64,000 nt of DNA from an uncultured Bacilli bacterium (GCA_947627435.1 CANQWB010000003.1:5955-69954), one strand, 5' to 3'. Counted from the stretch's first letter, positions 661-21,905 are shown. Numbers and translations: made by a program. The notes: generated by a model not told the origin, from the sequence alone.

Positions 661-814
661 TTACATGCCTTCTGGAGGTGAAAAAGGCTCTTGTAGTAAA
701 ATAACTTTCTTCGAGAAAATTTTGATTTTAAAGATAATTTATTAAAAATAAGTTATCTTTTTTATGATTTTACAGAAATTACAAAAAACAAACGATAAAA
801 ATATGTCCCAAATA

Positions 815-843
815 TTGCAAAAATGTCCCAGAAGATATATAAT
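815..843 (+). promoter_or_regulatory. Sigma-A type promoter for the ATPase/protease operon
   Basis: TTGCAA (815-820), 17-nt spacer, TATAAT (838-843). It lies 17 nt upstream of the likely ATG at 860. ATGTCCCA direct repeats sit at 803-810 and 823-830. Confidence 0.5.
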
Positions 844-859
844 GTATATAGGTGATAAT

Positions 860-1894
860 ATGAAGAAGAAGAATATATTAAATTTAATTAAATATCATAC
901 AGAAAATAATGATGAATATTTTAGAAATGAGGCATATGAAATTGCAAAATATTTTGATAAAACTGGTGATGTTGAATTATCAGAATATATACTTGCTCTT
1001 CTTTCTGATGTAAATACTTTTGTACCACAAATTGATAAATCGGATTTGGTTTTTTTTAAAAAAATATCTCCAAGTAAAGAACCATTTCCTTTACCAGAAA
1101 GCATAAAAGATGATATTGTTGGATTAATACATGCTGTTAAACATAATGTTGGTGTCAATAAATTTTTATTTGAAGGAGCTCCTGGAACAGGTAAAACTGA
1201 AACGGTTAGGCAATTATCAAGGATCTTAGAAAGAGATATTTTTTCTGTGGATTTCAGTATAGTTATTGATAGTAAACTTGGTCAAACCGCTAAAAACATT
1301 ACGGAATTGTTTTATGAAATTAAAAAAATGCCTCATCCAGAAAAAGTAATAATACTTTTTGATGAGATAGATGCCATAGCATTAGATAGAATGAATGATA
1401 ATGATATCAGGGAAATGGGAAGAGCAACTTCTACAATTCTGAAAGAATTAGATCAATTAAATAACAATATTTTATTTATTGCAACTACTAATTTATTTTC
1501 TTCATTTGATAAGGCGCTAATAAGAAGATTTGATTCTATAATTAATTTTAATAATTATTCAAGAGATGATTTGTTGGAGGTTGCTGAGTATATTTTAAAT
1601 GAAATGCTTTTAAAATTTAAAAAGGCTGGAAGAAATATAAAATTATTTAAAAAGATAATTAATTTAATGAATCCAATTCCATATCCTGGAGATTTAAGAA
1701 ATTTAATAAAGACATCTATTGCTTTTAGTGATCCTGACCGTGAATTAGACTATTTAAAAACATTGTATAAGAAAATAAACAAAGATAGAAAATTACAATT
1801 AAAGGATTTACAAAAACTAGGATTTACAGTTAGAGAAATTGAAATAATTACGGGAATTTCTAAAAGTCAGGTTTCTAGAGAATGGAGAGATTAG
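860..1894 (+). CDS. ietA: AAA+ ATPase, IetA-like, with a C-terminal HTH-like tail
   Basis: Walker A GAPGTGKT, Walker B ILFDEID, sensor-1 ATTN. It sits 4 nt upstream of an S8 peptidase gene. The likely start is ATG 860 (AGGTGA RBS) rather than 764 in the ORF track. The C-terminus reads LGFTVREIEIITGISKSQVSREW. Confidence 0.65.
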   Translation: MKKKNILNLIKYHTENNDEYFRNEAYEIAKYFDKTGDVELSEYILALLSDVNTFVPQIDKSDLVFFKKISPSKEPFPLPESIKDDIVGLIHAVKHNVGVNKFLFEGAPGTGKTETVRQLSRILERDIFSVDFSIVIDSKLGQTAKNITELFYEIKKMPHPEKVIILFDEIDAIALDRMNDNDIREMGRATSTILKELDQLNNNILFIATTNLFSSFDKALIRRFDSIINFNNYSRDDLLEVAEYILNEMLLKFKKAGRNIKLFKKIINLMNPIPYPGDLRNLIKTSIAFSDPDRELDYLKTLYKKINKDRKLQLKDLQKLGFTVREIEIITGISKSQVSREWRD

Positions 1895-1897
1895 AAT

Positions 1898-4120
1898 ATG
1901 AATAGCTTACTTCAATTAAAAGGACAATTTCATCAGAGAACAAATAATTCAACTCCAGGACCTGCTGTACTTCCTGGTAGTTCAATAGTTTTGGTTGAAC
2001 ATTTAGAGACTTTATTATTTCAATTAAAGAAATTATATAGTTTTTGGAATACGCAAAATGTAGTTAATGGTGCATTAATTAGTGTGTATTACATTGATAT
2101 AATAGCAAAAAGTAATAGGATATCTGCAATTATTCGTGAGCCTGGTAAAACAACAAACAACACAATAGTTGGTGCAAAATTTACTAATAAAGAAGCTCCA
2201 AAGCATATCATTACACATTATCTACATCTATCTTCATTAAATACTTCTATTAATAAATTAGATTTAGTTATTAAATGTGTCAAAGAAAAAATGTCTGGTG
2301 TAGTTTCTCAACAAAAGTTAGACAATCTAGATGATTTATCTAATTATTTAAAAAAAGTAGGTCTTTCTAAGTCAGCCTTTAATCAAATAATTGTAGATGC
2401 GTATTATGTAGAAAAGTTTGATTTACCCGACAATAGCGATATTATAAGTGATAATGCATTAGTTACTTTGTATAAAACTGATGATAATATAAAAGAAATA
2501 ATGAATAAATTAGGTATAGATATTTTGTCTCAGAGAATTATTGAAGAAGATTCAACGGTATTACTAACGCCAGATCAATTAGATTTATTAAAAATGAAAG
2601 CACCATATTTAATTGCAATGACTTTAAGTGATATTTCAGAATTGTCAAAAGATGATTTTGTTACTTTAGATAATGACACTATTCCTAAATTACCAAATCC
2701 TAGCAATGAACCAACAATTGGAGTAATTGATACATTATTTGATACCAGAAGTTATTTTTCAAATTGGGTTGAATATCATAAAGTGATTTCTGATGATATA
2801 GAAACATCTTCAGAAGATATGGATCATGGCACAGCGGTATCATCTATTATAGTAGATGGCCCAAATATAAATCCAGAACTGGATGATGGATGTGGCAGAT
2901 TTAAAGTTAGACATTTTGGTGTTGCCCTTTCTAAGCAAATGAGTTCATTTGCTATATTAAGACACATTAAGGAGATAGTAAAAACTAATAGAGATATTAA
3001 AGTTTGGAATTTATCGCTTGGTTCAGCTCTTGAGATTAATCCTAATTTTATATCACCTGAGGCAGCCATATTGGATAAAATTCAATATGAAAATAATGTT
3101 ATATTTGTAATTGCTGGAACTAATAAACAAAAAGAAAATGTAGAAATGATTGGTGCACCTGCTGATTCAATAAATGCATTGGTTGTTAATTCTGTTAACT
3201 CAAAGGGTACTCCAGCATCATACTCTAGGAAGGGCTTAGTATTATCCTTTTTTAATAAGCCAGATATATGTTACTATGGTGGAGATAAAAATGATTATAT
3301 TAAAGCTTGTAATTCTTGTGGGGAATGTTTATTAGCTGGGACATCATTTGCAGCTCCATGGATTTCTAGAAAAATGTCTTATTTAATTGACATTTTAGGA
3401 TTAAGTAGAGAAGTAGCTAAAGCCCTAATAATTGATTCTGCAACAAATTGGAAAGAAATAATTAATCAAGAAGAGGCTCCATTATTAGGATATGGTGTTG
3501 TTCCAAAAAGAATAGAGGATATCATAAATTCTAAAGATGATGAAATAAAATTTGTTATTGAAGGAATTTCAGAAAAATATGATACATATACATATGATAT
3601 TCCAGTTCCATTACATAATAATAAATATCCATTTATTTCAAGGGCCACATTATGTTATTTTCCCAATTGTTCAAGAAATCAAGGTGTAGATTACACTAAT
3701 ACAGAACTAGATTTATCATTTGGCAGAATTGATGACAAGGGTCATATAAAAACAATAAATAATAACTATCAAACTGAAAAAGGTCACTATATGTATGAAG
3801 GTAATGCACGAAAAAATTATAGAAAGTGGGATAATGTAAAACACATAATTGAAATATTAAAAGATGGTTCTAAGCCTAAAAAAAGGTATTCAAATGAATT
3901 ATGGGGCATAAGTATTAAAACTAAAGAGCGATTGGAAAAAAGAGATGGAGAGGGAATAAAATTTGGAATTGTAATTACATTAAAAGAAATAAATGGAATA
4001 AATAGAATTGATGATTTTATAAGACTTTGTTCTTTAAGAAAATGGCTCGTTACAAAAGTTGATGTTGAAAATAAAATTGAATTATACAATAAGGCTGAAG
4101 AAGAAATAGATTTAAAATAA
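1898..4120 (+). CDS. ietS: S8 (subtilisin-like) serine peptidase, IetS-like
   Basis: Catalytic Asp (GVIDT), His (HGTAVSSII), oxyanion Asn (NLSLG) and Ser (GTSFAAPW) occur in order. The 740-aa protein has no signal peptide and is translationally coupled to the ATPase. Confidence 0.65.
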   Translation: MNSLLQLKGQFHQRTNNSTPGPAVLPGSSIVLVEHLETLLFQLKKLYSFWNTQNVVNGALISVYYIDIIAKSNRISAIIREPGKTTNNTIVGAKFTNKEAPKHIITHYLHLSSLNTSINKLDLVIKCVKEKMSGVVSQQKLDNLDDLSNYLKKVGLSKSAFNQIIVDAYYVEKFDLPDNSDIISDNALVTLYKTDDNIKEIMNKLGIDILSQRIIEEDSTVLLTPDQLDLLKMKAPYLIAMTLSDISELSKDDFVTLDNDTIPKLPNPSNEPTIGVIDTLFDTRSYFSNWVEYHKVISDDIETSSEDMDHGTAVSSIIVDGPNINPELDDGCGRFKVRHFGVALSKQMSSFAILRHIKEIVKTNRDIKVWNLSLGSALEINPNFISPEAAILDKIQYENNVIFVIAGTNKQKENVEMIGAPADSINALVVNSVNSKGTPASYSRKGLVLSFFNKPDICYYGGDKNDYIKACNSCGECLLAGTSFAAPWISRKMSYLIDILGLSREVAKALIIDSATNWKEIINQEEAPLLGYGVVPKRIEDIINSKDDEIKFVIEGISEKYDTYTYDIPVPLHNNKYPFISRATLCYFPNCSRNQGVDYTNTELDLSFGRIDDKGHIKTINNNYQTEKGHYMYEGNARKNYRKWDNVKHIIEILKDGSKPKKRYSNELWGISIKTKERLEKRDGEGIKFGIVITLKEINGINRIDDFIRLCSLRKWLVTKVDVENKIELYNKAEEEIDLK

Positions 4121-4152: not shown

Positions 4153-5286
4153 ATGAAGGTTATATCAATGTTCTCAGGAGCTGGTGGATTAGACTTAGGC
4201 TTTTCTTTAGCTGGTCATAAAATAGTATGGGCAAATGATTTTGATGACTATGCAGTGGATACATATGAAGAAAACTTTAATAGATTTAATAAGCATAAAG
4301 TTGTTAGAGGTGATATATTAGAATACTTAAATCAAGATGAAGAAAAATTAAAAAAAGAAATACCTGATGCAGATATAGTTATTGGAGGATTTCCTTGTCA
4401 AGGTTTTTCTATAGCCAATATTAACAGAAGTATGGAAGATGAAAGAAATTATTTGTATTTGCAAGTTTTAAAAATGATCAAAATAAAAAATCCTAAATTT
4501 ATATTATTAGAAAATGTTAAAGGCTTAGAAAATATGGAAAAGGGAAAAATTTTAGAAATGATTATTAAAGATATTGAATCAATTGGTGATGGATATACAG
4601 TATATTATAATGTTTTAAATGCATTAAATTATGGTGTTCCACAAAATCGTGAAAGGGTCATAATTTTTGGAGTAAGGAATGATTATGCATCAAAAATTAA
4701 AATGCCCATTACAGACAAACCTGCTGATTCAAAAAAGAAAAAAAAGAGGTTATTAGTAAAAGAGACTCATTCAAAGAATAGTAATATTAAGCAACCTAAA
4801 AATACATACTTAGTCGTTACAGATATGTTTAATAAATTGTGTAATAATAAAAAAATAAATATTAATGATTATTTTGATCAAAATATAAAATATCAGTATC
4901 AAACATTAAGAGATACAATTTTTGGACTACCCGAAGAAACAAATATTGATAATAGTGAAGTACTGAATCACACATCATCTAAATGTAAATTGAATCAAAA
5001 AAAAGCACATATGGTTGGAAATAGACCAACATATTGGGATAAATATTCTCCAACGATAATGGGAAGAGGTAGTGGTACAGGAGGCCCATTAATTATTCCT
5101 CATCCTGAATATAATAGAAGAATGAGCGTTCGAGAAGTTGCTAGAATACAATCTTTTCCTGATACATTTTTATTTTTAGGAAGCACGTCTGCTTGTTATA
5201 GACAAATAGGAAATGCTGTTCCAGTTTTAATGGCATATAACATTGCCAAAATTTTTCCAATAAAAATAGAAGATTTTTTAAATTAA
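4153..5286 (+). CDS. DNA (cytosine-5)-methyltransferase
   Basis: Motif I FSGAGGLDLGF, motif IV GFPCQGFS, motif VI ENVKGL, motif VIII QNRERV, motif X GNAVP. Confidence 0.95.
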   Translation: MKVISMFSGAGGLDLGFSLAGHKIVWANDFDDYAVDTYEENFNRFNKHKVVRGDILEYLNQDEEKLKKEIPDADIVIGGFPCQGFSIANINRSMEDERNYLYLQVLKMIKIKNPKFILLENVKGLENMEKGKILEMIIKDIESIGDGYTVYYNVLNALNYGVPQNRERVIIFGVRNDYASKIKMPITDKPADSKKKKKRLLVKETHSKNSNIKQPKNTYLVVTDMFNKLCNNKKININDYFDQNIKYQYQTLRDTIFGLPEETNIDNSEVLNHTSSKCKLNQKKAHMVGNRPTYWDKYSPTIMGRGSGTGGPLIIPHPEYNRRMSVREVARIQSFPDTFLFLGSTSACYRQIGNAVPVLMAYNIAKIFPIKIEDFLN

Positions 5287-6273
5287 ATCTTCTATTTTTT
5301 GATCTATTAATTTTTCTAGAATAATTATATTATCTATAAATTCTTTGTTTTCAAATACTTTTTCTAAGTTAAAAATTGTATCAAAATATTTTAAGTTTAG
5401 TTTTTTAATCATGTCCATTAATGCTGTATATCTTATTCTTAAATTATTATTTTCCCATCTATACCATATTTTTGTAAATGAATTTATGCCACCATTTTCA
5501 TCATTTAAAGATTCCGTAATAGCGGTTACAAAAGATTCTGATGGAATTAAAGTTATTTTCATTTTATACCCTGATTTATATACAATTAATAAATCATCGC
5601 TATATACGTATTTTACATAGTCATTTATTCTGCTTTTAAATTCATCAAATTTATTATTTTCTTTTATGGATTTGAGTAGTGGAATTGTTTGTCTTGGAGA
5701 TCCTAATCCTCCTTTTCTATCGCTAAGAGCTTTATCTGTTAATCCAATAAATAATGCTCTGTGTGATAGAGAACCTATATTAATTTCATCATTAAAATCA
5801 TTATTAACAATTCTACCTTCTTTATTATAAAGCTTTCCTTTTAATGTTTTAATAGATAATTCATATTGGTCTATTCTATGATCTGCCTTTTCTCGTTTAT
5901 TACCTGCTAAATCATGACTAACTGACCAATCAACATTACTACATAAATTATCATATACTTTAATATAATTTGGAGCAATAGGATTAACTCTAGATGAAGT
6001 ATCGGTAGCTTTTGCCCCTACTAATTCTCCAAAAATATCTTCAAAAATTCTCGCAGTTGTATGTCTATCACGTGTTTCTTTAGATGATACAAAATCATAT
6101 AACATCAATCCTATAAATGAAGAATTAATTTCCCCAATATCGATGCCTTTCTGCAAAGTACTAAGATATTTAATAAGTGAATCTCTATCTGTAGGTTCTT
6201 TTATATTAAAGTCATGGCAAATATTTTCTGAAAATGAGTGCAGTTTATCAAACATTACTTTATCTAATACCAT
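5278..6273 (-). CDS. Putative type II restriction endonuclease partner of the methyltransferase
   Basis: Convergent with the methyltransferase, with a 9-nt overlap of the 3' ends. Candidate PD-(D/E)xK core IDQYELSIK. Recognition specificity cannot be read from the sequence. Confidence 0.55.
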   Translation of the reverse strand: MVLDKVMFDKLHSFSENICHDFNIKEPTDRDSLIKYLSTLQKGIDIGEINSSFIGLMLYDFVSSKETRDRHTTARIFEDIFGELVGAKATDTSSRVNPIAPNYIKVYDNLCSNVDWSVSHDLAGNKREKADHRIDQYELSIKTLKGKLYNKEGRIVNNDFNDEINIGSLSHRALFIGLTDKALSDRKGGLGSPRQTIPLLKSIKENNKFDEFKSRINDYVKYVYSDDLLIVYKSGYKMKITLIPSESFVTAITESLNDENGGINSFTKIWYRWENNNLRIRYTALMDMIKKLNLKYFDTIFNLEKVFENKEFIDNIIILEKLIDQKIEDLI

Positions 6274-6363
6274 ATTATCCCTCCATATACATTATAACAT
6301 ACTGAGTATAAATTCATAAGAATTATGAGAATGATTGTGATAAAATAATAATGGTGATTATTT

Positions 6364-6759
6364 ATGAAAATATTAACATTAAAACAACCATGGGCTACCC
6401 TAGTTGCAGAAGGAATAAAAAAATATGAATTTAGGTCTTGGAAAACTAATTATAGAGGTAAAGTATTAATCCATGCTGGAGCCGGTGTCGATAAAAAAGA
6501 AATGGAAAAATTTAAATTTTTAAATTTAGATTATCCATCAAAAAGAATTATTGCTGAAGCCGAAATAGAAGATTGCCTAGAATTTAATGAAAAATTAAAT
6601 AGTAAAATAATGAATGAAAATAATATAGCATATGGTGCAAAATATAGAAGTGGTTATGCTTGGAAATTAAAAAATGTGAAAAAGATTGATTATGATAAAG
6701 AGATAAATGGTAAATTAGGATTATGGAATATAGATATTAAAAACTTAAAATATAAATAA
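6364..6759 (+). CDS. ASCH domain protein
   Basis: N-terminus LKQPWATLVAEGIKKYEFRSW is typical of ASCH/PUA-like folds. 131 aa. Confidence 0.7.
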   Translation: MKILTLKQPWATLVAEGIKKYEFRSWKTNYRGKVLIHAGAGVDKKEMEKFKFLNLDYPSKRIIAEAEIEDCLEFNEKLNSKIMNENNIAYGAKYRSGYAWKLKNVKKIDYDKEINGKLGLWNIDIKNLKYK

Positions 6760-8240: not shown

Positions 8241-9899
8241 ATGAATTATAGTTACTTAACAAATATGAATTATAATGCTGGTATTTATATTAGACTTTCT
8301 CAAGAGGATAAAGATAAAAAATATGAGTCAGATAGCGAAAGTGTTACTAATCAAAAAGAAATATTAAGAGACTATTGTTTAAAAAATGGATTTAATTTAA
8401 TAGATGAGTATGTAGATGATGGCTATTCAGGAACAAATTTTGATAGACCTGGATTTATAAGAATGATGGAAGATATAAAAAATAAAAAGATTAATCTTGT
8501 AGTAGTAAAAGATTTATCAAGGCTAGGTAGAGATCATGTAATGACGGGTTACTATATTGAAACATATTTTCCAGAAAACAAAGTAAGATTTATATCTATT
8601 GTTGAAAACTATGATAGTATGAAAAATCAAGCAAGTAATGATTCGTCAACATTTATTATTGCTTGTAATGATTATTATAGTAAACAAAATTCATTAAAAA
8701 TAAGGAATGTATTAGATTCTAAAAGAAAAGATGGTAAATTTATTGGGAGCAAACCGTGTTATGGTTATATGAGAGACCCAGAAGATAAAGGGCATTTAAT
8801 AATAGATCCTAATACAGCTCACTATGTTAAGCAAATGTTTGAATGGAGAGCAAATGATATAGGAATATCAGAAATAGCTACTCGACTTACTAAATTAGGT
8901 GCACCAACACCAAGTGCTTATAAGAATTTACCAATATCTTCTAGAGTAAAAGAAAAAAATGAGTGGACAATACATTCAGTAAAAAAAATATTGAGTAACA
9001 GAATGTATACTGGTGATATGGTACAACATACTCAGACCAATATTAGTTATAAATCTAAAAAGAAAATAACTCTTGACCAAAGTTTATGGGTAATAGTAGA
9101 AAATACTCATGAACCATTAGTAGATAAAGAGACATTTAGGATTATTAATAAAAAAAGAGATAATCATAATCGAAAAGTTGAAAAAAAAACAAAAAGACCA
9201 ACAAGATTGCTAGAGGGATTAATCTTCTGTAAAGAATGTGGGAATCGGTTAGGAGTAATTTATAGAAAGAATCATAACTACTGGACTATTAATTGTAATA
9301 GATATGCTAGAGATCCCATTAGAGGAAGATGCAAAACGCATTTTTTCCCTTATGAATATTTTGAAGAAGAAGTATTAGAAGAATTAAATAAATTATTATC
9401 CGATTTATTTAAAGGATTAAGTATTAAAGAATTAAATAACGAAATTATAAATAGAACCAATTCTGGTACTAAATCACTAGATGAAATAAAAAAAGATATT
9501 GAAAAAGACATTTTAAAATTATCTTCTAATATTCAAACAGTTTATCAAGATCGAATTGATGGTAACATTTCTTTAGACTCTTATAAAATGATAGTATCTC
9601 CTTATGAGCAAAAAATGAAAAAACTTAAAGATAAACTAGAAGAAGTAGAATTAGAAATTATGAAAAGGAAAAATAATGCTAATAAGATACCAAATTATAC
9701 AAAGAAGATAAAAGAATTATTAAATTTAGAAAAACCAAATAGAGACTTGTTATTTACCATAATAGATAGAATAGAAGCAGATGAAAATCGAAATATAACA
9801 ATTAAGTTCAAATATCAAATTCTTGATGACTATACCTTTAAATACACTGATAAGAATTTAGTAAGAAATCCTTACGGAAGGTATGGTAAAATAAAATGA
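8241..9899 (+). CDS. Large serine recombinase (module A)
   Basis: Resolvase domain YIRLSQED...DDGYSG...VKDLSRLGRD, a recombinase domain, the zinc ribbon CKECGNRL...NCNRY, and a C-terminal coiled coil. Confidence 0.9.
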   Translation: MNYSYLTNMNYNAGIYIRLSQEDKDKKYESDSESVTNQKEILRDYCLKNGFNLIDEYVDDGYSGTNFDRPGFIRMMEDIKNKKINLVVVKDLSRLGRDHVMTGYYIETYFPENKVRFISIVENYDSMKNQASNDSSTFIIACNDYYSKQNSLKIRNVLDSKRKDGKFIGSKPCYGYMRDPEDKGHLIIDPNTAHYVKQMFEWRANDIGISEIATRLTKLGAPTPSAYKNLPISSRVKEKNEWTIHSVKKILSNRMYTGDMVQHTQTNISYKSKKKITLDQSLWVIVENTHEPLVDKETFRIINKKRDNHNRKVEKKTKRPTRLLEGLIFCKECGNRLGVIYRKNHNYWTINCNRYARDPIRGRCKTHFFPYEYFEEEVLEELNKLLSDLFKGLSIKELNNEIINRTNSGTKSLDEIKKDIEKDILKLSSNIQTVYQDRIDGNISLDSYKMIVSPYEQKMKKLKDKLEEVELEIMKRKNNANKIPNYTKKIKELLNLEKPNRDLLFTIIDRIEADENRNITIKFKYQILDDYTFKYTDKNLVRNPYGRYGKIK

Positions 9900-10212: not shown

Positions 10213-10545
10213 ATGAACAATAGTTACATTAATGAAGAGGTAATAGATGGTGATATTTCAGATGAAGAATTTGAAAGAAAATATTTGCCATGTATAGATA
10301 ATTTTTGTGATTATATGAAAAAATTTGTAATACCAGATGCAGTAGCATTTTATTTAGCAAACGAGTATGACAGAGATTGTTTGGATGAATGTCCACTTGT
10401 CAATCATATTAATTCTGCATTGGATATTTTTAATATTATTATTGAAGTGAAAGAATTAATTCCTACTATAGAAATGATATTAAAAATAAAATATAATCTT
10501 AAAATTATAAGTAGAAATCCTTTAAAATTAGAAAAAAATTATTAA
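10213..10545 (+). CDS. Hypothetical acidic protein
   Basis: GAGG RBS, 110 aa, Asp/Glu/Cys-rich N-terminal half. Confidence 0.4.
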   Translation: MNNSYINEEVIDGDISDEEFERKYLPCIDNFCDYMKKFVIPDAVAFYLANEYDRDCLDECPLVNHINSALDIFNIIIEVKELIPTIEMILKIKYNLKIISRNPLKLEKNY

Positions 10546-10782
10546 ATTGTAGGTGCTGATTTTTAGAATCAGTACTTATTTTTTATTAAGATTTATTCAA
10601 CTGTCGGAGACTAATTTAAAGGGTTTTAGGGATATGCCCTAACAAGTTTAGGGTGTGACAACACCATGCTTGATAGTTTTAAAAACGATATTAATTAATA
10701 TGGTAAGACTATATGTGAAAAAAGATAATTTTTATAATTAAACTACATTTACTAATTTGCAATAAAATGTTATAATTTTGTT

Positions 10783-11385
10783 ATGAAAGTAAATGGTGAT
10801 GCTATGGATAATAAAATTAAAATTAAAAATTTTTTAGACAGTAATCATGGATATATACTAACATCAGATTTTTTATATTTAAATATTAGCAAGCCATTAA
10901 TAAAAAAGTATGTAGATAGTGGACTTATAAAAAAAGTTTCTCATGGCATTTATATGGATAGTGAATTATTAAAAGATGATGAATATATTTTTCAATTAAG
11001 ATATCCGATGGCAATCTTTTCATATAAAACAGCTTTAAATATTTTGGGATATATATTTAAAGAACCACAAATGAAAGAAATTACTATTAATAGTAAAAAG
11101 AGAGTATTAGGAAATTATAAAGTACATTATGTATCAGATAAATATTATGATATTGGTATTATAGAAATTGAAGATATGTTTCACAATCCTATCAAAGTTT
11201 ATAATATTGAGAGATGTATTTGTGATATGTTGAGAAGTAATGATTTTGATTTAGAACTTCAAAATAATATACTACATGAATATTTTAAAAGTAAAGAAAA
11301 AGATATAGATAAATTACTAGAGTATTCTAAAATTTTCAATATCTATGATAAAGTTAGTACTTTAGTTGATTATGCGGTAAGATAG
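10783..11385 (+). CDS. AbiEi-like antitoxin-domain protein
   Basis: N-terminal GYILTSDFLYLNISKPLIKKYVDSGLIKKVSHGIY resembles the AbiEi_4 wHTH. 200 aa, ending 12 nt upstream of the Fic gene. Confidence 0.6.
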   Translation: MKVNGDAMDNKIKIKNFLDSNHGYILTSDFLYLNISKPLIKKYVDSGLIKKVSHGIYMDSELLKDDEYIFQLRYPMAIFSYKTALNILGYIFKEPQMKEITINSKKRVLGNYKVHYVSDKYYDIGIIEIEDMFHNPIKVYNIERCICDMLRSNDFDLELQNNILHEYFKSKEKDIDKLLEYSKIFNIYDKVSTLVDYAVR

Positions 11386-11397
11386 GAGGTATTAAAA

Positions 11398-12234
11398 ATG
11401 AGTGAGAAAGATTTAGACTCTAGTAATGTAGAATACACTGAACTAGTAAACTCTAAGGGTTATATTAAACAATTGCAATGGGATATGGCCATTGGGCTTC
11501 AAGAAGTAGATAATTTAAAACCTTCTAAATATTTTGAAAGGCTTGTTACTGATAATGTAGAAGGTAATCTTACTATAGAACAAGTAGAAAAAGATTTAAA
11601 AGAATACTATATTGAAAAAGAAAAACAAAACGATATAAATCATAATGAAATGGAATGTGATTTAGTTTCTACTAGAATTGTAGAATTATTGCAAATTGAT
11701 AATTTTGAATTATCAGTAGATTATTTAAAATATGTTCATAAATATTTATTTCAAGATGTTTATGAATTTGCTGGAGAATTTAGAAAAATAGATTTTTCTA
11801 AACATGAAAAAATATTGAATAATGATTCGGTAGCTTATGGAGACTCAAAAACTTTGAATGAATCATTAGAGTATGATATATCATTAGAAAAAGAAAAGAA
11901 TTATAAAGAAATGAGTATTGTTGGAGTAATAAATAATATAACTAATTTTTCATCAAATATTTGGCAAGTACATCCTTTTAGAGAAGGGAATACTAGAACT
12001 ACAGCATTATTTATAGAAAAATATTTGATTAGTTTAGGTTATGAAGTAGATAATACATTATTTAAAGAAAAGTCAGTTTATTTTAGAAATGCATTAGTTA
12101 GAAGTAATTATTTTAATAATTATTTGAATATAAAAGAAGATAAAAGTTATTTAATTAAATTTTATGAAAATTTATTATTAGGTAAAAATAATAATTTACA
12201 TTCACAAGATTTGATTATTAAAGAGTTATTTTAA
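11398..12234 (+). CDS. Fic/DOC family protein (putative AMPylase) with an N-terminal inhibitory motif
   Basis: Fic motif HPFREGNTRTTALF. The N-terminal TDNVEG fits the (S/T)xxxE(G/N) inhibitory helix. Confidence 0.85.
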   Translation: MSEKDLDSSNVEYTELVNSKGYIKQLQWDMAIGLQEVDNLKPSKYFERLVTDNVEGNLTIEQVEKDLKEYYIEKEKQNDINHNEMECDLVSTRIVELLQIDNFELSVDYLKYVHKYLFQDVYEFAGEFRKIDFSKHEKILNNDSVAYGDSKTLNESLEYDISLEKEKNYKEMSIVGVINNITNFSSNIWQVHPFREGNTRTTALFIEKYLISLGYEVDNTLFKEKSVYFRNALVRSNYFNNYLNIKEDKSYLIKFYENLLLGKNNNLHSQDLIIKELF

Positions 12235-12244
12235 AGGAGGAAGC

Positions 12245-12559
12245 ATGGAAGAATTAATTAATAAAATAATTAAATTTAATGAAGAAAGAGATTGGGATCA
12301 GTTTCATTCACCAGAAAATTTAGCAAAAAGTATTTCTATTGAAGCAGGTGAATTATTAGAATGCTTTCAATGGAATAATGAATTTGACATTAACGAAGTA
12401 AAAGAAGAATTAGCAGATGTTATAAATTATTGTCTATTATTAGCTGATAAATTAAAATTAAATCCTGAACAAATAGTTTTAGAAAAAATGGAAAAAACGG
12501 CAAAAAAATACCCTGTGGAAAAAGCTAAAGGAAAAAGCACAAAATATAGTAAGTTGTAG
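12245..12559 (+). CDS. MazG-like nucleotide pyrophosphohydrolase
   Basis: RDWDQFHSPENLAKSISIEAGELLECFQW...EELADVINYCLLLA, with the EExxE and ExxD metal motifs. 104 aa. Confidence 0.8.
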   Translation: MEELINKIIKFNEERDWDQFHSPENLAKSISIEAGELLECFQWNNEFDINEVKEELADVINYCLLLADKLKLNPEQIVLEKMEKTAKKYPVEKAKGKSTKYSKL

Positions 12560-12567
12560 GAGAATAT

Positions 12568-12792
12568 ATGAAAAGTAATGAAGTATTATCATGTGAAGCA
12601 ATTAAACTATTTAATGATTATAAAGAATTAATTAAAAATAATCCTAAACAGTTAGAAGACATATTTTATAAATTATTTGAAATCATAACTAACCATGAAA
12701 AATATACAGAAGATGAATCAAAAATAATTTTTGGAAAATTTATGATTTTAGTTTTAGGACAAGAGTTGGGTGGTAATAATGTTAGTGTATGA
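12568..12792 (+). CDS. Hypothetical small protein
   Basis: GGAG RBS. It overlaps the next gene by 14 nt, so it appears operonic. Confidence 0.4.
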   Translation: MKSNEVLSCEAIKLFNDYKELIKNNPKQLEDIFYKLFEIITNHEKYTEDESKIIFGKFMILVLGQELGGNNVSV

Positions 12793-14656
12793 AGGTATTA
12801 AATCAGGGTTTATAGACGATGTTAATCTAAATAAAATTGTAGATAAAATTTATGATAAATATAAACAATTTTTTGGTAGAACAAGTGAGTCACAATTAAA
12901 TTCGTGGAAAAATTCTATGCAATATATGAGAGGTGTATTAGATGACAGTGAAATACCTAATAATGCTGGTGTTGCTATTGAATTTAATATTCCAACTACT
13001 TCTAAAAGAATAGATTTCATTTTATCTGGAAGAGATAATAAAAGAAAAGATTCTGTAATTATAATAGAGTTAAAACAATGGGAAACATGTAATGCTATAG
13101 AAAATAAAGATGGTATTGTATCTACATTTACTGGGGGTGCAATAAGAGAAGTTGCTCATCCTTCTTATCAAGCAATGAGTTATGCAAATTTGATTAAAGA
13201 TTTTAATGAAACTGTTCAATTAGATGAAATTGGATTATATCCATGTGCATTTCTTCATAATTATGATTTGAAAGATGATGATCCTATTTGCAGTAGTCAA
13301 TATCAAGAGTATATAAAAGAAGCACCAATGTTTGGTACAAATGATTTTGAAAAACTAAGAAATTTTATTAAAAAGTATATAGTTGAAGGCGATGATAGAG
13401 AACTTTTATATAAAATTGAGAATGGCAGAATCAGACCTTCTAAAAGATTACAAGATTCATTAGCACAAATGCTACAAGGAAATAAAGAATTTAATATGAT
13501 TGATGAGCAAAAAGTTATATATGAGGATGCAATTAGAATGGCTATTGATACTGTAGCAAGTGATACAAAAAATGTATTTATTGTTCAAGGAGGACCAGGG
13601 ACTGGAAAATCTGTTCTTGCCATTAATTTATTAGTTGAATTAACCAATAGAAATATGACAACTTTTTATGTAACAAAAAATGCCGCTCCAAGAGCTGTAT
13701 TTAGAGATAAATTAAAAGGTACATTTAAAATGACATATATAAATAATTTATTTCAAGGATCTGGACAATTTACTGATGCAAACAAAAATGAAATAGATTG
13801 TTTAATAGTGGATGAAGCGCATAGATTAAATGCAAAATCTGGAATGTTTCAAAATTTAGGTGAAAATCAAATTAAAGAAATTATAAATGCATCCAATTTT
13901 TCAATTTTCTTTATTGATGAAGACCAAAAAGTAACTTTAAAAGATATTGGTTCGATAGATGAAATAAAAAAATATGCACATGAACTTGGAGCAGGAATTA
14001 AAATTGTGGAACTTGAAAGTCAATTTAGATGTAACGGTTCAGATGGATATTTAGCATGGTTAGATAATTTACTTGAAATTAGAAAAACTGCTAATTTTGA
14101 TGATATGGATTTTAATTATGATTTTAGAGTATTAGATAATCCTAATGATTTAAGAAATTTAATAGAAGAAAAAAATAGAGAAAATAATAAATCTAGAATT
14201 GTAGCTGGATATTGTTGGGATTGGATAAGTGAAGGTAAAAATAATAGTAATATCCACGATATAGTAATTCCAGAATATAATTTTGAGATGAGTTGGAATT
14301 TGGGTAATTCCCAAACTTGGGCAATTGATTCAACTTCAGTAAATGAAGTTGGTTGTATCCATACGTGTCAAGGGCTAGAATTTGATTATGTTGGTGTTAT
14401 TATCGGAGAAGATTTAAGGTATGAAGATGAGCATATTGTTACTGATTATACAAAACGAGCTAAGACAGATCAATCTCTAAAAGGCATTAATAAAATAGCT
14501 AGAGAGAAAGGCGTAGATATAGCTAATAAAATAGCTAATTCTATTATAAAAAATACATATAGAACATTGATGACTAGGGGTATGAAAGGTTGTTATGTAT
14601 ATTGTGTAGATAAAAATTTACAAAAATATTTAAAGGAAAATGTTAGAAATTTATAA
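12779..14656 (+). CDS. PD-(D/E)xK nuclease-like N-terminus fused to a DUF2075-type SF1 ATPase/helicase
   Basis: N-terminal RIDFIL...IIIELKQW (D...ExK). Walker A GGPGTGKS, Walker B LIVDEAH, C-terminal CIHTCQGLEFDYVGV. The likely start is ATG 12779 (MLVYEG). Confidence 0.75.
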   Translation: MLVYEGIKSGFIDDVNLNKIVDKIYDKYKQFFGRTSESQLNSWKNSMQYMRGVLDDSEIPNNAGVAIEFNIPTTSKRIDFILSGRDNKRKDSVIIIELKQWETCNAIENKDGIVSTFTGGAIREVAHPSYQAMSYANLIKDFNETVQLDEIGLYPCAFLHNYDLKDDDPICSSQYQEYIKEAPMFGTNDFEKLRNFIKKYIVEGDDRELLYKIENGRIRPSKRLQDSLAQMLQGNKEFNMIDEQKVIYEDAIRMAIDTVASDTKNVFIVQGGPGTGKSVLAINLLVELTNRNMTTFYVTKNAAPRAVFRDKLKGTFKMTYINNLFQGSGQFTDANKNEIDCLIVDEAHRLNAKSGMFQNLGENQIKEIINASNFSIFFIDEDQKVTLKDIGSIDEIKKYAHELGAGIKIVELESQFRCNGSDGYLAWLDNLLEIRKTANFDDMDFNYDFRVLDNPNDLRNLIEEKNRENNKSRIVAGYCWDWISEGKNNSNIHDIVIPEYNFEMSWNLGNSQTWAIDSTSVNEVGCIHTCQGLEFDYVGVIIGEDLRYEDEHIVTDYTKRAKTDQSLKGINKIAREKGVDIANKIANSIIKNTYRTLMTRGMKGCYVYCVDKNLQKYLKENVRNL

Positions 14657-14703
14657 TTTAGCAATATAAACATTAGAGTGCTATTGCATTAATTACACTT
14701 TTA

Positions 14704-14712
14704 TGGTAATAT
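14704..14712 (+). promoter_or_regulatory. Orphan extended -10 element
   Basis: TGgTAATAT in a context (TTTTATGGTAATAT) resembling the promoters of both recombinase genes. No CDS follows before the terminator at 14771. Confidence 0.3.
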
Positions 14713-14770
14713 GCAATTATACAGAAGTAATAGTAGCTGAGTTTATCTTGTTAATGTGGTGTAATAAAAA

Positions 14771-14809
14771 AAGCATTTGCTATGAGATAAACAAATGCTT
14801 TTACTTTTG
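14771..14809 (+). terminator. Intrinsic terminator
   Basis: Stem AAGCATTTG / CAAATGCTT with a 12-nt loop, followed by TTTACTTTTG. Confidence 0.6.
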
Positions 14810-15156
14810 TATAAGTGGTTGCATCCACTATACTAAATGAAATCAAAGACTAACAAAACAGAATGTTAGAAAATGAAATTACAGGAGAATATGAATTTTT
14901 GATTATATTCATGACTTTTGTCATTCCTGCTATTATTAGCATAGCAGAAAAAAAAGACAAAATCAAGCCGTTGATCATAAAAAATTCTATTGTTCAAGTC
15001 AAAATGTAAAGGAGGTAAAATATATGGCAAAGAAAAAATGCAATAAATCGGTTCATGTTAAGGCTCATAATAGATGTAGACCTGGTACACATAAAAAGTA
15101 GAGAATACTTAATTTTAGTATGGTGGTCGCTCCAAAAAAATGATGGAGGAATAAAA

Positions 15157-17276: not shown

Positions 17277-18575
17277 GCAATTTATTTGTCAAAGTTGATA
17301 TTTATAATTGGTAGTTATAAATATCTTTTTTTATTAATATTTTAATAATGAATCATTAAGTATAACATCATCAGGTTTAATATAATAACAATTAAGTTTT
17401 TTAAGAATATATTCATCACATAGAAATAACATTGCCTCATAAGGTGATTTACCATTTAAAGAATCACGGCATAAACTATTAATGTTATTCATAAATAAAT
17501 CACAATCTTCTTGTGTAATATTTTTAAAAGAAGAACCTTTAGGTAAAATATAACGAATAAATTCATGATTTTTCTCTATGCCTCCTTTTTGCCAAGAAGC
17601 TGAAGGATCACAAAAGAAAAGATGAGTAACATAATCGCCAGTTTCATGAATACATTCAATATTATTGACATCAAAAAATTCATGACCATTATCAGTAAGA
17701 ATAATTGGAAATAGTTTTTTATAATCTTCTTCAGGTATAAAAGATTGAAGAATACCAAATATTCTAGTTACTTCTTCAGTAGTTTGAGATTCCAATTTAA
17801 ATATAAGCATAAAATTAGATTTTCTCCAAAAAAGAGTAAGAAAACAATCTTCTTCAGTTTGGAGACCTTCAACAGTATCCATTTCAACAATGTTTAAATA
17901 AGGATTTTTAGATATATAATCTAAAAAGTCAGAATATTTTCTGTTAATTAAAATTTCTCTTTCTTTTCGAGTTCTTCTATTAGAATTGTTTTTTCTTTTT
18001 TTATATTTAACAATTCTAGGAAAATCCAAAGGTCCAAATTCAAAAACACCATTGTTTACATAATTATAAAAAGATGGTTTAGAAAAATCTAAAATGTCTG
18101 GATGATTAATATATAAATGATTTATAGTTTGACCTTTTTTAATAAGAGGAGTAAGAATCTTATTAATTTGAAATATTTCTTCTGGTGTTAAATTAATACC
18201 TTTTCGAGCTTCACTTTTAACTTCTTTATAAGAATCATTAGCTCTTCTGGCATAGTAAGTATATCTTTCTTTTCTACAACCACTTCTTGATTTACAACCA
18301 TTACAAACATAAGGTGAACGTTTTAATCTCTCACAAGATAAATCTCTATCATAATTATTATTTTTATAATTATTAAAATTACTTGGTTGAGAAAAGATTT
18401 TGTTTCGATCAATTTCTCTTAAAATGGAAGAATGAGATCTGTTAATTTCTTTAGCAATCTGATTAATAGATTTATTATCATTTAATCCGTCTTCAATATT
18501 TTTTCTATCTTCATAAGATAAATGACAATAATTTGTCATAGTATATAATACCTCCTTTAATGACAAATAAATTGC
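17277..18575 (-). mobile_element. IS30-family insertion sequence
   Basis: 15-bp terminal inverted repeats: GCAATTTATTTGTCA at 17277-17291 and TGACAAATAAATTGC at 18561-18575. They enclose a single transposase gene. Confidence 0.8.
17334..18539 (-). CDS. IS30-family transposase
   Basis: N-terminal HTH (LSYEDRKNIEDGL...SINQIAKEINRSHSSILREI) and a DDE core. The likely start is ATG 18539 (MTNYCHLSY), after the RBS AAAGGAGG. Confidence 0.9.
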   Translation of the reverse strand: MTNYCHLSYEDRKNIEDGLNDNKSINQIAKEINRSHSSILREIDRNKIFSQPSNFNNYKNNNYDRDLSCERLKRSPYVCNGCKSRSGCRKERYTYYARRANDSYKEVKSEARKGINLTPEEIFQINKILTPLIKKGQTINHLYINHPDILDFSKPSFYNYVNNGVFEFGPLDFPRIVKYKKRKNNSNRRTRKEREILINRKYSDFLDYISKNPYLNIVEMDTVEGLQTEEDCFLTLFWRKSNFMLIFKLESQTTEEVTRIFGILQSFIPEEDYKKLFPIILTDNGHEFFDVNNIECIHETGDYVTHLFFCDPSASWQKGGIEKNHEFIRYILPKGSSFKNITQEDCDLFMNNINSLCRDSLNGKSPYEAMLFLCDEYILKKLNCYYIKPDDVILNDSLLKY

Positions 18576-18757: not shown

Positions 18758-20347
18758 TTGTATAACACTTTAAAAAATGCGCCAGAGTTTTACAAAGCAG
18801 GAATATATATAAGATTATCTGAAGCTGATGAAGGAAAAACTTACGAATCAGATAGTGAGAGTGTCCTTAATCAAAGAAATATGCTAATGAATTTTGTAAA
18901 AGAAAAGGGTTTTATCTTTGTAGGAGAATATGTTGATGATGGTTATTCTGGAACTAATTTTGAACGACCAGGATTTTCAAAAATGATTGAAGATATAAAA
19001 AATAAAGTTATTAACTTAGTTATCGTAAAAGATTTATCTAGACTTGGAAGAGATCATATTATGACCGGTTATTATGTTGAAAATTTCTTCCCTGAAAATG
19101 GAATAAGATTTATTTCTATGCAAGAAGGTTATGATAATGCAGTTAACCAAGCTAGTAATGATTCTTCAACTTTTATATTTGCTTGTAATGATTATTATAG
19201 TAAACAAAACTCTATAAAAATTCGTAATGTCTTAAATGATAAAAGAAGAAATGGTAAGTTTATAGGTAGTGCTCCGAGTTATGGGTATTTAAGAGATCCT
19301 GATGATAAGGGACACTTAATACCAGATCCAGAGTATGCACCGATTGTTAAAAAAATATTTGATATGGCCTATGAAGGTGTTGGATTATCTGCCATAACAA
19401 CTTATCTAAACGAAAGTAAAATTAAAACTCCAAGTAGTCTTAAAAGAAAAAATCCCCATGCTAAAAATAAATATAATCCTATATGGACTATATCATCTGT
19501 TAAAAAGATTTTAAAAAATCAAATGTATGTTGGTGATATGGTACAAAGTGTTCAAACGAAGGTATCTTATAAATCAAAAAAGAAAAAGACACTTCCAAAA
19601 GGTAATTGGGATATTGTTAAAAATACTCATGAACCAATAGTAGATAGAGTTATATTTGACCATGTACAAGATAATGTCAAAAGAACAAATTATACAGCAA
19701 ATACAAAGAGAGAAAAAAGACTATTTGAAAACTTATTATATTGCAAAGAATGTGGTAATATGCTTACGATTACTTATAAAAAGAAACAAGATTATTGGAC
19801 AATTAATTGTAATAGATATTCAAGAGATCCTAAAAGAAGAATGTGTGAGCCACATTTTATACCTTATGATAAGTTAGAGAATGCTTTATTAGATACAATT
19901 AAAAAGACTTGTAAACAATATTTAAAAGCTATTAATGTATCTGATATTGCAAATGAAATTAATAATAAGAAAAAGAATAATTTTAAGACACAAGAAAAAA
20001 TAAAAGAGTTAGAATCAAAAGAAAAAGAATATCTTAATAAATTAGATACACTTTATGAAGATAAATTTAAAGGATTAGTATCAGAAGAAATGTATAAAAG
20101 AATTGCTAATGATACTGAAGTTTTACTAACTAAATTAAGAAAAGAAATAAATAAATTGAAGGATGATAACAAGGTTATAAAAAACAAAACTGATGATATA
20201 AAACAATATGAAGAAAAGATTAAATCTTTAATTAATATTGAAAATCCTACAAGAGAACTAATGCAAACTATCATTGATAAAATAGTTATAGACAAAGATA
20301 AAAATATTGAAATAATTTACAAATTTAGCGTATTAAATAATATTTAA
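18758..20347 (+). CDS. Large serine recombinase (module B), paralogue of 8241-9899
   Basis: Same motif set (YIRLSEAD, DDGYSG, VKDLSRLGRD, CKECGNML...NCNRY). By eye about two thirds identical to recombinase 1 over the N-terminal 350 aa. Confidence 0.9.
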   Translation: MYNTLKNAPEFYKAGIYIRLSEADEGKTYESDSESVLNQRNMLMNFVKEKGFIFVGEYVDDGYSGTNFERPGFSKMIEDIKNKVINLVIVKDLSRLGRDHIMTGYYVENFFPENGIRFISMQEGYDNAVNQASNDSSTFIFACNDYYSKQNSIKIRNVLNDKRRNGKFIGSAPSYGYLRDPDDKGHLIPDPEYAPIVKKIFDMAYEGVGLSAITTYLNESKIKTPSSLKRKNPHAKNKYNPIWTISSVKKILKNQMYVGDMVQSVQTKVSYKSKKKKTLPKGNWDIVKNTHEPIVDRVIFDHVQDNVKRTNYTANTKREKRLFENLLYCKECGNMLTITYKKKQDYWTINCNRYSRDPKRRMCEPHFIPYDKLENALLDTIKKTCKQYLKAINVSDIANEINNKKKNNFKTQEKIKELESKEKEYLNKLDTLYEDKFKGLVSEEMYKRIANDTEVLLTKLRKEINKLKDDNKVIKNKTDDIKQYEEKIKSLINIENPTRELMQTIIDKIVIDKDKNIEIIYKFSVLNNI

Positions 20348-20458: not shown

Positions 20459-21286
20459 ATGAATACTTTAGAAAAATATACTGACAAAACTTTTAACGAT
20501 ATTAAACACATTGATGATTATGGAAATGAATATTGGGAAGCACGAGAATTAATGCCATTATTAGAATATAGTAAATGGGAAAATTTTCATAAGGTTATTA
20601 AACGAGCAATGATTGCTTGTGAAACTAGTAATAATAATACTAACGATCACTTTCCTGAGTTCAGGAAACCGATAGTAGGTGGTAAAGGTAACATTCAAAA
20701 AGTTATAGATTATCATTTATCAAGGTATGCTTGTTATTTAATAGTTCAAAATGCAAATCCTAGAAAAAGATCAGTAGCTTTAGGTCAAACTTATTTTGCT
20801 GTTCAAACTAGAAAGCAAGAGATTACTGAATTAGAATATTCGAAATTATCAGAAGATGAAAAAAGATTATATACTAGAATTCTGGTTAATAATAAAAATA
20901 AATATTTGTTTAAAACTGCAAAAGAAGCAGGTGTAGAAAATTTTGGCAAATTTAATAATTACGGATATAAAGGGCTTTATAATGGCGAAACTGCAAAACA
21001 AATAGCAAAACGTAAAAATATAAAGGAAAATGAAGATATTCTTGATTATATGGGGAGTGAAGAATTAGGTGCAAATTTATTCCGTATTACTCAAACAGAA
21101 GCTAAATTAAAAAAGGATAATATAAGTAATGAAGATGATGCTTGTATAACTCATTACAACGTTGGGAAAACGGTTAGAAAAGCAATCGAAGAACTTGGAG
21201 GTAATATGCCTGAAACGCTACCTACCCCAGAAAAATCCATAAAAGAACTTGAAATCGAAGAATTAAAAAAAATAGAATCTAAATAA
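20459..21286 (+). CDS. DNA damage-inducible protein D (DinD)-like
   Basis: WEARELMPLLEYSKWENFHKVIKRA...LSRYACYLIVQNANPRK...GQTYFAVQTRKQE matches the DinD family signature as I recall it. Confidence 0.7.
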   Translation: MNTLEKYTDKTFNDIKHIDDYGNEYWEARELMPLLEYSKWENFHKVIKRAMIACETSNNNTNDHFPEFRKPIVGGKGNIQKVIDYHLSRYACYLIVQNANPRKRSVALGQTYFAVQTRKQEITELEYSKLSEDEKRLYTRILVNNKNKYLFKTAKEAGVENFGKFNNYGYKGLYNGETAKQIAKRKNIKENEDILDYMGSEELGANLFRITQTEAKLKKDNISNEDDACITHYNVGKTVRKAIEELGGNMPETLPTPEKSIKELEIEELKKIESK

Positions 21287-21308
21287 AAATAATTAAGGAG
21301 TGGTATTT

Positions 21309-21905
21309 ATGGCAAAAGTATTAACATTTGAAGTTGGAATTAATAGTTTAGAAAATAAAATATGGAGAAAAATTGAAATTACGGATCGAAGAACTATAGC
21401 AGATTTAGCATATACAATTCTTGCTAGTTTTGACTCTTTAGCGTATCATTTATATTATATCAAGTATAAAAATAAAGTATATGATTGTTGGGTTTGTATA
21501 GAAGATGATCATAGTGAAATTCCACCTATTAATGCCGTTATAACTAAATTAAGCAGTCTTGGCTTAAAAGAAAATGATACTATGGAAATGGACTATGATA
21601 CTGGTTCGACAACAACGTTTAAAATCAAATATTTAGGAGCAAGAGACTTAGAAAATGGGAAGGGCAATCATTATCCATATATAATTGATGGCGCTGGCAG
21701 AGGTATGCTCGATGATTTATGTGATTTTGAATTAAAAGAAATTGTTGATGATATTGATCAAAAAGGATATTCGGAACATTATTTTACTCCTGGTTATCAA
21801 AGAACTATAAAATATGATTATAGAAAATATAATATTAAAAATGATAATGCATTGTTAAAAGGTCTAATTTTAGAAATAAAAAATGGATATGAAGTTGGTG
21901 ATTAA
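21309..21905 (+). CDS. pRiA4b ORF-3-like protein
   Basis: N-terminus KVLTFEVGINSLENKIWRKIEI...TIADLAYTILASFDS is typical of this family. AAGGAG RBS before ATG 21309. Confidence 0.6.
   Translation: MAKVLTFEVGINSLENKIWRKIEITDRRTIADLAYTILASFDSLAYHLYYIKYKNKVYDCWVCIEDDHSEIPPINAVITKLSSLGLKENDTMEMDYDTGSTTTFKIKYLGARDLENGKGNHYPYIIDGAGRGMLDDLCDFELKEIVDDIDQKGYSEHYFTPGYQRTIKYDYRKYNIKNDNALLKGLILEIKNGYEVGD

Follow-up and report, generated by a model that had tools for sequence, protein, structure and literature searches.

A five-gene block of a gut Bacilli genome as probable mosaic cargo of a serine recombinase island, with a conserved MazG-like and nuclease-helicase pair

The five-gene block

The stretch of DNA considered here is one window of 64 kb (64,000 nucleotides) from an uncultured Bacilli bacterium, and all coordinates are positions in this window. 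Its subject is a block of five genes, ending at position 14656, for an AbiEi-like protein, a Fic protein, a MazG-like pyrophosphohydrolase, a small protein and a nuclease-helicase. An earlier note on the same DNA had proposed that these genes form a candidate composite defence or abortive-infection module. The block is real as sequence and over-interpreted as a system, as it belongs to an ordinary mosaic defence island. The value of the finding lies in the pair made by the MazG-like protein with the Nhi-like nuclease-helicase and in the cassette structure of the island. All biochemical activities and any defence phenotype of the block are predicted from sequence. The block and its control regions comprise the following features.

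10593-10685: conserved non-coding element of about 80-95 nt, just 5' of the abiEi promoter
10748-10776, + strand: promoter-like site TTTACT-17-TGTTATAAT, with an extended -10
10783-11385, + strand: first open reading frame (ORF 1), AbiEi-like, 200 aa
10804-11385, + strand: abiEi-like gene from its preferred start, 193 aa, AbiEi-family winged helix-turn-helix protein
11398-12234, + strand: fic, 278 aa, single-chain Fic protein
12245-12559, + strand: MazG-like gene, 104 aa, predicted all-alpha nucleoside triphosphate pyrophosphohydrolase, homolog of DCTPP1/RS21-C6
12568-12792, + strand: ORF of 74 aa, no family, between mazG and the helicase gene
12770 (GTG) or 12779 (ATG) to 14656, + strand: Nhi-like nuclease-helicase, 628 or 625 aa
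14769-14802: hairpin after the helicase gene, with a symmetric, G+C-poor stem, an A-run on one side and a T-run on the other

The ORF coordinates bear out the arrangement given in the earlier note, with five plus-strand ORFs, gaps of 12, 10 and 8 nt and, given the ATG start at 12779, a 14-nt overlap of the helicase gene with the 74-aa ORF. Genes two to five are preceded, in order, by the Shine-Dalgarno-like sequences AGGAGG, GGAGG, GGAG and GGTGG. Profile matches from Pfam and PADLOC confirm the domain calls, the promoter-like site lies where an AT-rich promoter had been proposed, and the terminator announced near 14771 corresponds to the hairpin at 14769-14802. Called on the minus strand by the terminator scan, this hairpin is, from its sequence, likely to be a bidirectional terminator closing the block. 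The reported surroundings, with two recombinase modules and IetAS and methylase genes, are all present, and the description of the block as defence-type cargo on a mobile element is supported.

The beginning of the first gene is the part that has to be amended. The plus-strand ORF at 10783-11385 is present; its true start is probably the ATG at 10804, because the 25 nt preceding that codon are invariant at the DNA level and a 1-nt insertion separates the two ATG codons in two related loci (L010 and L011) and in one RNA contig. The promoter TTTACT-17-TGTTATAAT is almost invariant across 27 distinct upstream sequences, and the 5' untranslated region that follows, also invariant at the DNA level, contains a GGTGA Shine-Dalgarno sequence. 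No clear operator dyad was identified in the abiEi promoter region, the promoter scan within the block was uninformative (58 sites versus 57 in shuffles), and an Rfam search of 10400-15100 returned nothing at E<=1.

Modularity of the island cargo

Relatives of the Fic protein at 80-100% identity number in the thousands, and a scan with one genome per species found a relative in 446 genomes. The best 80 of these 446 all come from gut bacteria that have not been cultured; most carry the label Bacilli, Tenericutes or Mollicutes, and the sources are rabbit, human, chicken and other guts. The host lineage, in which the island is common, consists of low-G+C Bacilli of the gut, and its genomes measure about 1.2 Mb. 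From such uncultured gut Bacilli, 87 loci were picked by Fic similarity (L numbers designate individual loci), and the presence of AbiEi could be assessed in 83 of them.

These loci share one island order: a conserved gene of 110 aa, a variable slot, an optional segment made of the 80-nt element, the promoter and abiEi, then fic, a second variable slot, a small HTH_36 gene and finally a serine recombinase of 529-553 aa. The island integrase combines Resolvase, Recombinase and Zn_ribbon_recom domains and is 529 aa long in the window and related loci. The chromosomal flanks vary among loci (split Amidase_3-LysM, rny/pepM29, rpsI, ligA). Most islands of the family (L001-L006, L017-L033 and others) split an Amidase_3-LysM gene, with the N-terminal half on one side and the C-terminal half with its LysM repeats on the other (clusters C1 left and C8 right). 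A Peptidase_M29 gene adjoins the island in the window and in L007, whose opposite flank (the visible left side) is rny.

Within this frame the cargo changes from locus to locus. AbiEi stands 5' of Fic in 28 of the 83 assessable loci; otherwise the slot holds Gabija-like genes, AAA_21, PRiA4_ORF3, DUF6119 or others. The MazG-like and helicase genes lie downstream of Fic in 17 of the 87 loci. The first gene 3' of Fic is MazG-like in 16 loci and otherwise belongs to type I, II or III restriction-modification (R-M) systems or to other cargo, and complete R-M systems occupy this position in most relatives. The counts for AbiEi against helicase (a 9/19/8/40 table, Fisher p=0.16) indicate independent assortment, and the exact five-gene set recurs only in L007 and L184, both near-identical relatives whose Fic identity is about 97%. 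Since AbiEi, Fic and the MazG-helicase segment assort independently, the five genes are not one unit. Regardless of cargo, nearly all genes of the island point the same way and are closely spaced, so this layout is a property of the island and not the sign of a single system. In such genomes operon-like packing does not define a system, and annotation pipelines as well as readers would over-merge the cassettes.

The block is therefore best described as the mosaic cargo of an island of about 12 kb carried by a large serine recombinase and composed of separable units, a reading that we consider probable. The units are probably co-transcribed but mutually independent. Near-identity DNA searches of plasmid and phage collections gave no match.

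Defence hotspots are known on integrative elements, such as P2/P4 satellites and the SXT integrative and conjugative element (ICE), and as genes embedded in type I R-M operons. The island resembles them in having a backbone (recombinase, small HTH gene, 110-aa gene and Fic) with swappable defence cassettes at fixed sites. Unlike the hotspots of P2/P4 and the SXT ICE, it resides in uncultured gut Bacilli, relies on a large serine recombinase as its integrase, splits an Amidase_3-LysM gene in many of its copies and has one slot inside the MazG-helicase pair. A defence-cassette island family is thereby described for gut Bacilli with small genomes, which are poorly studied.

The MazG-like and nuclease-helicase pair

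A second sample of 80 independent metagenome loci was seeded with a Priestia helicase ortholog and contains helicases 37-88% identical to the window copy. A MazG-like ORF lies within 1 kb of the helicase in 60 of these loci (75%), usually 3-40 nt upstream, and in 11 of the 80 it is directly downstream. Measured against the window copies, the identities of the two proteins are correlated (Spearman 0.67, p=4e-9). Plasmid orthologs of the helicase at 42-60% identity are accompanied by a MazG-like gene in the archaeon Halalkalicoccus jeotgali and in Priestia aryabhattai, Marivirga and Halomonas; the two genes are adjacent in the first three and about 0.7 kb apart in Halomonas. A MazG partner is lacking near the plasmid orthologs of Methanosphaera and Hymenobacter. 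The genes are also adjacent in the Microcystis phage Mwe-JY31, and lie 8-28 nt apart in five island loci. In the 87 Fic-anchored loci the MazG-like gene is never found away from the helicase, save in truncated or decayed cases. The neighbours of the pair are heterogeneous and defence-flavoured, with AAA_15/AAA_21, ResIII, nSTAND3, DUF3427 and GmrSD_N.

The MazG-like protein and the helicase are thus a genuine conserved pair, joining a eukaryote-like dCTP (deoxycytidine triphosphate) pyrophosphatase of the DCTPP1 family with a Schlafen-type (DUF2075) nuclease-helicase. The pair is apparently undescribed, as the literature search found no paper joining MazG with DUF2075, Nhi or an anti-phage helicase.

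The space between the two genes accepts single inserts: AIPR (L003/L005), HEPN_AbiU2 (L029), DUF4145 (L011), a reverse transcriptase (L073), a 264-aa protein without family (L022/L031) and, in the window, the 74-aa ORF. The latter has 15 variants that are at least 90% identical and all lie between these two genes, and it is for this reason regarded as a clade-restricted insert in a third variable slot. An origin of this ORF by decay of the AIPR gene or another insert was considered and rejected, there being no similarity. The gap is in its own right a hotspot for single Abi-type genes, resembling genes embedded in type I R-M operons.

The MazG-like protein matches PF12643 (1.1e-19) and no PADLOC model, and its matches in the PDB are 4qgp (8.9e-21) and DCTPP1/RS21-C6 (3.6e-16). 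Its EXXE...EXXD motifs, E33xxE36 and E55xxD58, are intact and kept in 61 MazG-like sequences. DCTPP1-type enzymes are house-cleaning enzymes. The pyrophosphohydrolase would act on the deoxynucleoside triphosphate (dNTP) pool and, as the favoured guess from the DCTPP1 analogy, might hydrolyse non-canonical or modified dCTP, which would keep phage DNA attackable. Depletion of dNTPs or tuning of the effector could be alternative roles.

The helicase is recognized by PF09848 (DUF2075/SLFN-g3_helicase, 3.3e-108), and its family counts 829 cluster representatives (50% identity clusters) at E<=1e-30, so that it is not rare; a search of IMG/VR with the helicase gave no relative. The Walker A motif GGPGTGKS (nt 13589-13612) and the DEAH box at residues 345-348 are intact, and GGPGTGKS and VDEAHR are conserved in 81 orthologs. 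The same orthologs conserve the PD-(D/E)xK motif D79...E97-L-K99 of a putative nuclease in the N-terminal third (nt 13013-13075); residues 1-257 have no Pfam or PDB sequence match. Among PADLOC models, Nhi (1.9e-14, residues 241-477 only) and AbiO (2.9e-17) match the ATPase core only, and the best match is the candidate PDC-S41 (1.2e-18), in the N-terminal half.

Nhi and an Nhi-like defence protein, the latter shown to defend against phages, combine an N-terminal nuclease with DUF2075, according to two reports (bioRxiv 10.1101/776245, 10.1101/2022.05.11.491447). DUF2075 proteins were earlier suspected in the restriction of modified DNA (PMC6765204). The window protein is similar to Nhi (S. epidermidis SERP2475) and Nhi-like (Millman et al. 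2022), as these are portrayed there, in its putative N-terminal PD-(D/E)xK-type nuclease and its DUF2075 superfamily 1 core, as well as in the match of the PADLOC Nhi model to the core and in its defence-island setting. It differs in that this match is partial and PDC-S41 scores better. Likewise, neither a DCTPP1-like partner gene, present in 75% of sampled loci, nor the S24 domain of a sub-clade appears in the available text on Nhi and Nhi-like. By analogy with Nhi, the helicase-nuclease would be the effector and would use ATP to degrade foreign DNA that invades or replicates.

A helicase sub-clade carries a C-terminal Peptidase_S24 domain of the LexA/CI type (P0273, P0277, P0279, P0338, P0362 and P0418; L129, L132, L136, L153, L156, L167, L169, L177 and L183; L092 at 5950-6387), which hints at control by DNA-damage signals. 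The S24-fused loci, about ten, all keep the MazG-like gene, as do two further weak partial matches. The long orthologs of 785-826 aa were considered as helicase-MazG fusions, which was rejected as the extension is Peptidase_S24; a replacement of MazG by S24 was likewise rejected, since the fused loci all retain MazG.

The DCTPP1-like pyrophosphohydrolase and the PD-(D/E)xK-DUF2075 superfamily 1 helicase-nuclease would then constitute an autonomous two-gene module. As a tentative reading, to which we give somewhat less than even credence, this module is a mobile two-component anti-phage system of bacteria, archaea and a cyanophage-like element, in which a nucleotide-pool enzyme is obligatory for an Nhi-like effector and to which the S24 sub-clade adds a DNA-damage trigger. 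The enzyme could destroy modified dCTP analogues, leaving phage DNA open to attack, or gate the nuclease. If functional, the pair would tie sanitation of the nucleotide pool to nucleic-acid immunity, and the Nhi family, so far of one gene, would gain a two-gene form.

Other relatives of the helicase deserve mention. Tandem DUF2075 paralogs occur on Hymenobacter and Marivirga plasmids (L090 4001-7987; L093 4001-7736); the second copy is about 32-36% identical to the window helicase, and the first Marivirga copy looks disrupted, its match being in pieces. A protein labelled Methanosphaera sp. (P0226) is 89% identical to the window helicase and reflects either a transfer between gut bacteria and archaea or a binning error. 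The Methanosphaera plasmid pNP174 (L088) carries a 59.6% ortholog without MazG.

The Fic and AbiEi-like proteins

The Fic protein matches PF02661 (2.8e-11) with a core at about residues 85-240, and its closest solved structures are VbhT (4e-9), Bep and Fic. Residues 24-71 (nt 11467-11610) are VbhA-antitoxin-like. They align with a separate VbhA-family antitoxin encoded immediately upstream of fic on the Kurthia plasmid pYJ4A, which scores 26.9 bits against Pfam VbhA and aligns with the Fic segment at a pairwise E-value of 4e-5. The VbhA link is drawn from this two-gene homolog; in sequence searches of the PDB, neither the Fic N-terminus nor the family profile brought up VbhA. The alignment places a VbhA-like domain before a VbhT/FicT-type core in one chain, an actual example of a VbhA-VbhT-type module merged into a single polypeptide. 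The order of an antitoxin-like segment and a Fic core is shared with VbhT/VbhA and FicT/FicA, whereas these have a separate small antitoxin. In the segment, TDNVEG at residues 51-56 is not conserved (family consensus EENVSG), and in our own reading the position aligned to the inhibitory motif [S/T]xxxE[G/N] is LQEVDN.

The active-site motif HPFREGNTRTTA (nt 11971-12006) is invariant in 87 sequences. Compared with HxFx(D/E)GNGRxxR it has T for the second Gly and A for the second Arg, and it likewise departs from the HPFREGNGRxxR of VbhTA and FicTA. Like SoFic and the PADLOC candidate PDC-S72, the protein is a stand-alone Fic protein encoded in a defence island. It scores strongly against the PDC-S72 profile (9.4e-79, 263 bits, positions 8-271 of 377), although the last 100 or so profile positions, the C-terminal quarter, are missing, and PDC-S72 is a candidate only, for which no published test was found in the literature. 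The SoFic profile barely matches (E=2e-4, 18.9 bits). Such a Fic protein would inhibit itself and, once released, act as an effector by modifying a host target.

Judged by its profile match, the AbiEi-like protein is a full-length, genuine member of the AbiEi family and an orphan. It matches the PADLOC AbiEi model PDLC02225 at 4.8e-52 over residues 7-195, and scores 21.1 bits with Pfam AbiEi_4, under the cut-off of 25. Its nearest annotated AbiEi relatives, at about 31% identity, are encoded directly upstream of AbiEii toxins. As had been remarked before, the neighbour here is not the canonical one: Fic lies downstream, and tblastn with three AbiEii proteins found none in the window at E<=1 and matches in just 2 of the 87 loci. 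The block thus shares with AbiE a full-length AbiEi family protein as first gene, behind a strong conserved promoter, and differs from it by the lack of an AbiEii nucleotidyltransferase in the 64-kb window, by the Fic gene downstream and by an abiEi gene that two thirds of related loci do without. The orphan winged helix-turn-helix protein would act as a transcriptional (auto)repressor of the downstream genes and not as a dedicated antitoxin, which would make it an optional transcriptional regulator ahead of fic.

Presence or absence of AbiEi leaves the Fic sequence unchanged, with Q62E as the sole consistent residue difference. Homologs at 41-48% identity are found on plasmids of Paraclostridium, Treponema, Campylobacter and Bacteroides, and no AbiEi lies beside them in the two regions inspected (Paraclostridium and Treponema, 42-48% identity). 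Given the unchanged sequence and the VbhA-like domain of its own, Fic appears self-contained, with no apparent need for AbiEi as an antitoxin.

The non-coding element upstream of the abiEi promoter is shared by the window, L001-L012, L017-L033, L074, L087, L118 and L173. It is forward in the window lineage and reverse-complemented in another, with both flanks unturned. RNAalifold favours the window plus strand (-13.5 versus -3.9), and the element has no Rfam match. It holds an invariant CATGCTTGAT(A), which we take to resemble the CTTGATA Rep nick motif. An integron-like mark of every cassette boundary was considered for this element and ruled out, with one copy per AbiEi-bearing locus.

Alternative explanations

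A single composite defence or abortive-infection system with interdependent parts would account for the co-directional, tightly spaced genes, for the one conserved promoter and the hairpin after the last gene, and for the return of the same five genes in L007 and L184. However, these recurrences are all near-identical relatives. The neighbourhood-conservation analysis recommended in the earlier note, once run, indicates that the five families as a set do not co-occur beyond chance: the components assort independently in the 87 loci, Fic or AbiEi accompanies just 3 of the 80 helicase-seeded loci, and the slot after Fic mostly holds complete R-M systems. The composite system is largely refuted by this distribution and we hold it to be highly improbable; the remark that the combination is not a named system is upheld. 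A more limited proposal is that AbiEi and Fic form a true toxin-antitoxin (TA) pair, with Fic replacing AbiEii and AbiEi neutralising or repressing Fic. AbiEi is a full-length member of a family whose relatives are antitoxins of AbiEii, almost all 28 AbiEi-bearing loci keep the same gap of 11-12 nt between the two genes, and Fic toxins are known in TA modules (PMC8562856). On the other hand, 55 of 83 loci have Fic but lack AbiEi and show no compensating change in the Fic sequence, an extra ORF separates the two genes in two loci, Fic has its own fused VbhA-like domain and the inspected distant homologs have no AbiEi neighbour. The sole abstract that mentions both AbiEi and Fic has them in separate AbiEii/AbiEi and Fic/RelB pairs. 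A TA relationship between AbiEi and Fic is thus unlikely.

For the MazG-helicase pair, a role in DNA repair or nucleotide house-cleaning, as a passive passenger of mobile DNA and not an immune system, would suit the DCTPP1-type homology of the MazG-like protein and the LexA-type S24 domain of some orthologs, with its link to DNA-damage signalling. Against it speak the patchy spread of this horizontally mobile pair over plasmids and islands of different domains of life, the location of the pair in slots that elsewhere hold R-M systems, the Abi-type genes nested within it, its defence-type neighbours and an architecture equal to that of the experimentally defensive Nhi and Nhi-like; we find this role rather improbable. 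The two genes might also be frequent neighbours only, two independent single-gene cargoes, given that the gap takes unrelated inserts, that 20 of 80 orthologs stand without MazG and that Nhi acts as a single gene. A 75% adjacency across phyla, an archaeon included, adjacency that persists when the gene order flips, correlated divergence of both genes and a MazG-like gene never off the helicase except when truncated or decayed make such chance company improbable.

The mosaic island with a self-contained Fic and a two-gene MazG-helicase module, which we prefer, has several points to contend with. Because Fic similarity guided the choice of loci, sampling explains part of the constancy of Fic; the 87 loci are phylogenetically related, and RNA contigs from two metatranscriptomes cover the relatives only patchily. 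The fixed AbiEi-Fic gap is what a real pair would be expected to have. The Fic motif is degenerate, which makes its chemistry uncertain, as AMPylation may fail or the protein be inactive, and an AlphaFold2 model of Fic from a shallow alignment (predicted local distance difference test score, pLDDT, of 50.5) gives no position for the N-terminal domain. The 20 helicase orthologs without a MazG neighbour suggest that the helicase may work alone, as Nhi does.

Surroundings of the island

The other features of the window are, from left to right, as follows.

764-4120: IetA/IetS, upstream of the block
4153-5286: C5 methyltransferase, upstream of the block
8241-9899: serine recombinase, from a domain search
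10213-10545, + strand: conserved island gene of 110 aa, no family (cluster C5, 22 loci), marking the left part of the backbone
10549-10579: terminator-like hairpin after the 110-aa gene, from a hairpin scan
17334-18566, - strand: transposase-like ORF of insertion sequence type, 410 aa, between the cargo and the island recombinase
18758-20347, + strand: large serine recombinase of the island, 529 aa

A relative of the transposase-like ORF at 17334-18566 lies at the equivalent site in L022, and tandem islands with different serine recombinases occur at several loci. On the left, a partial ORF at 3-647, 5' of IetA, has weak matches to HD nucleases of the Cas3/Cas10 type (2e-9 to 3e-6). Directly past the island recombinase, 20459-21286 encodes a 275-aa Bro-N protein with a strong match to the PADLOC candidate PDC-S13 (9e-103), and the next gene, at 21300-21905, encodes a PRiA4_ORF3-family protein. 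About 10 kb past the island lies a tmRNA gene (32021-32398) with the tag ANKLKNTFATLFTKNTVAFA, followed by chromosomal genes.

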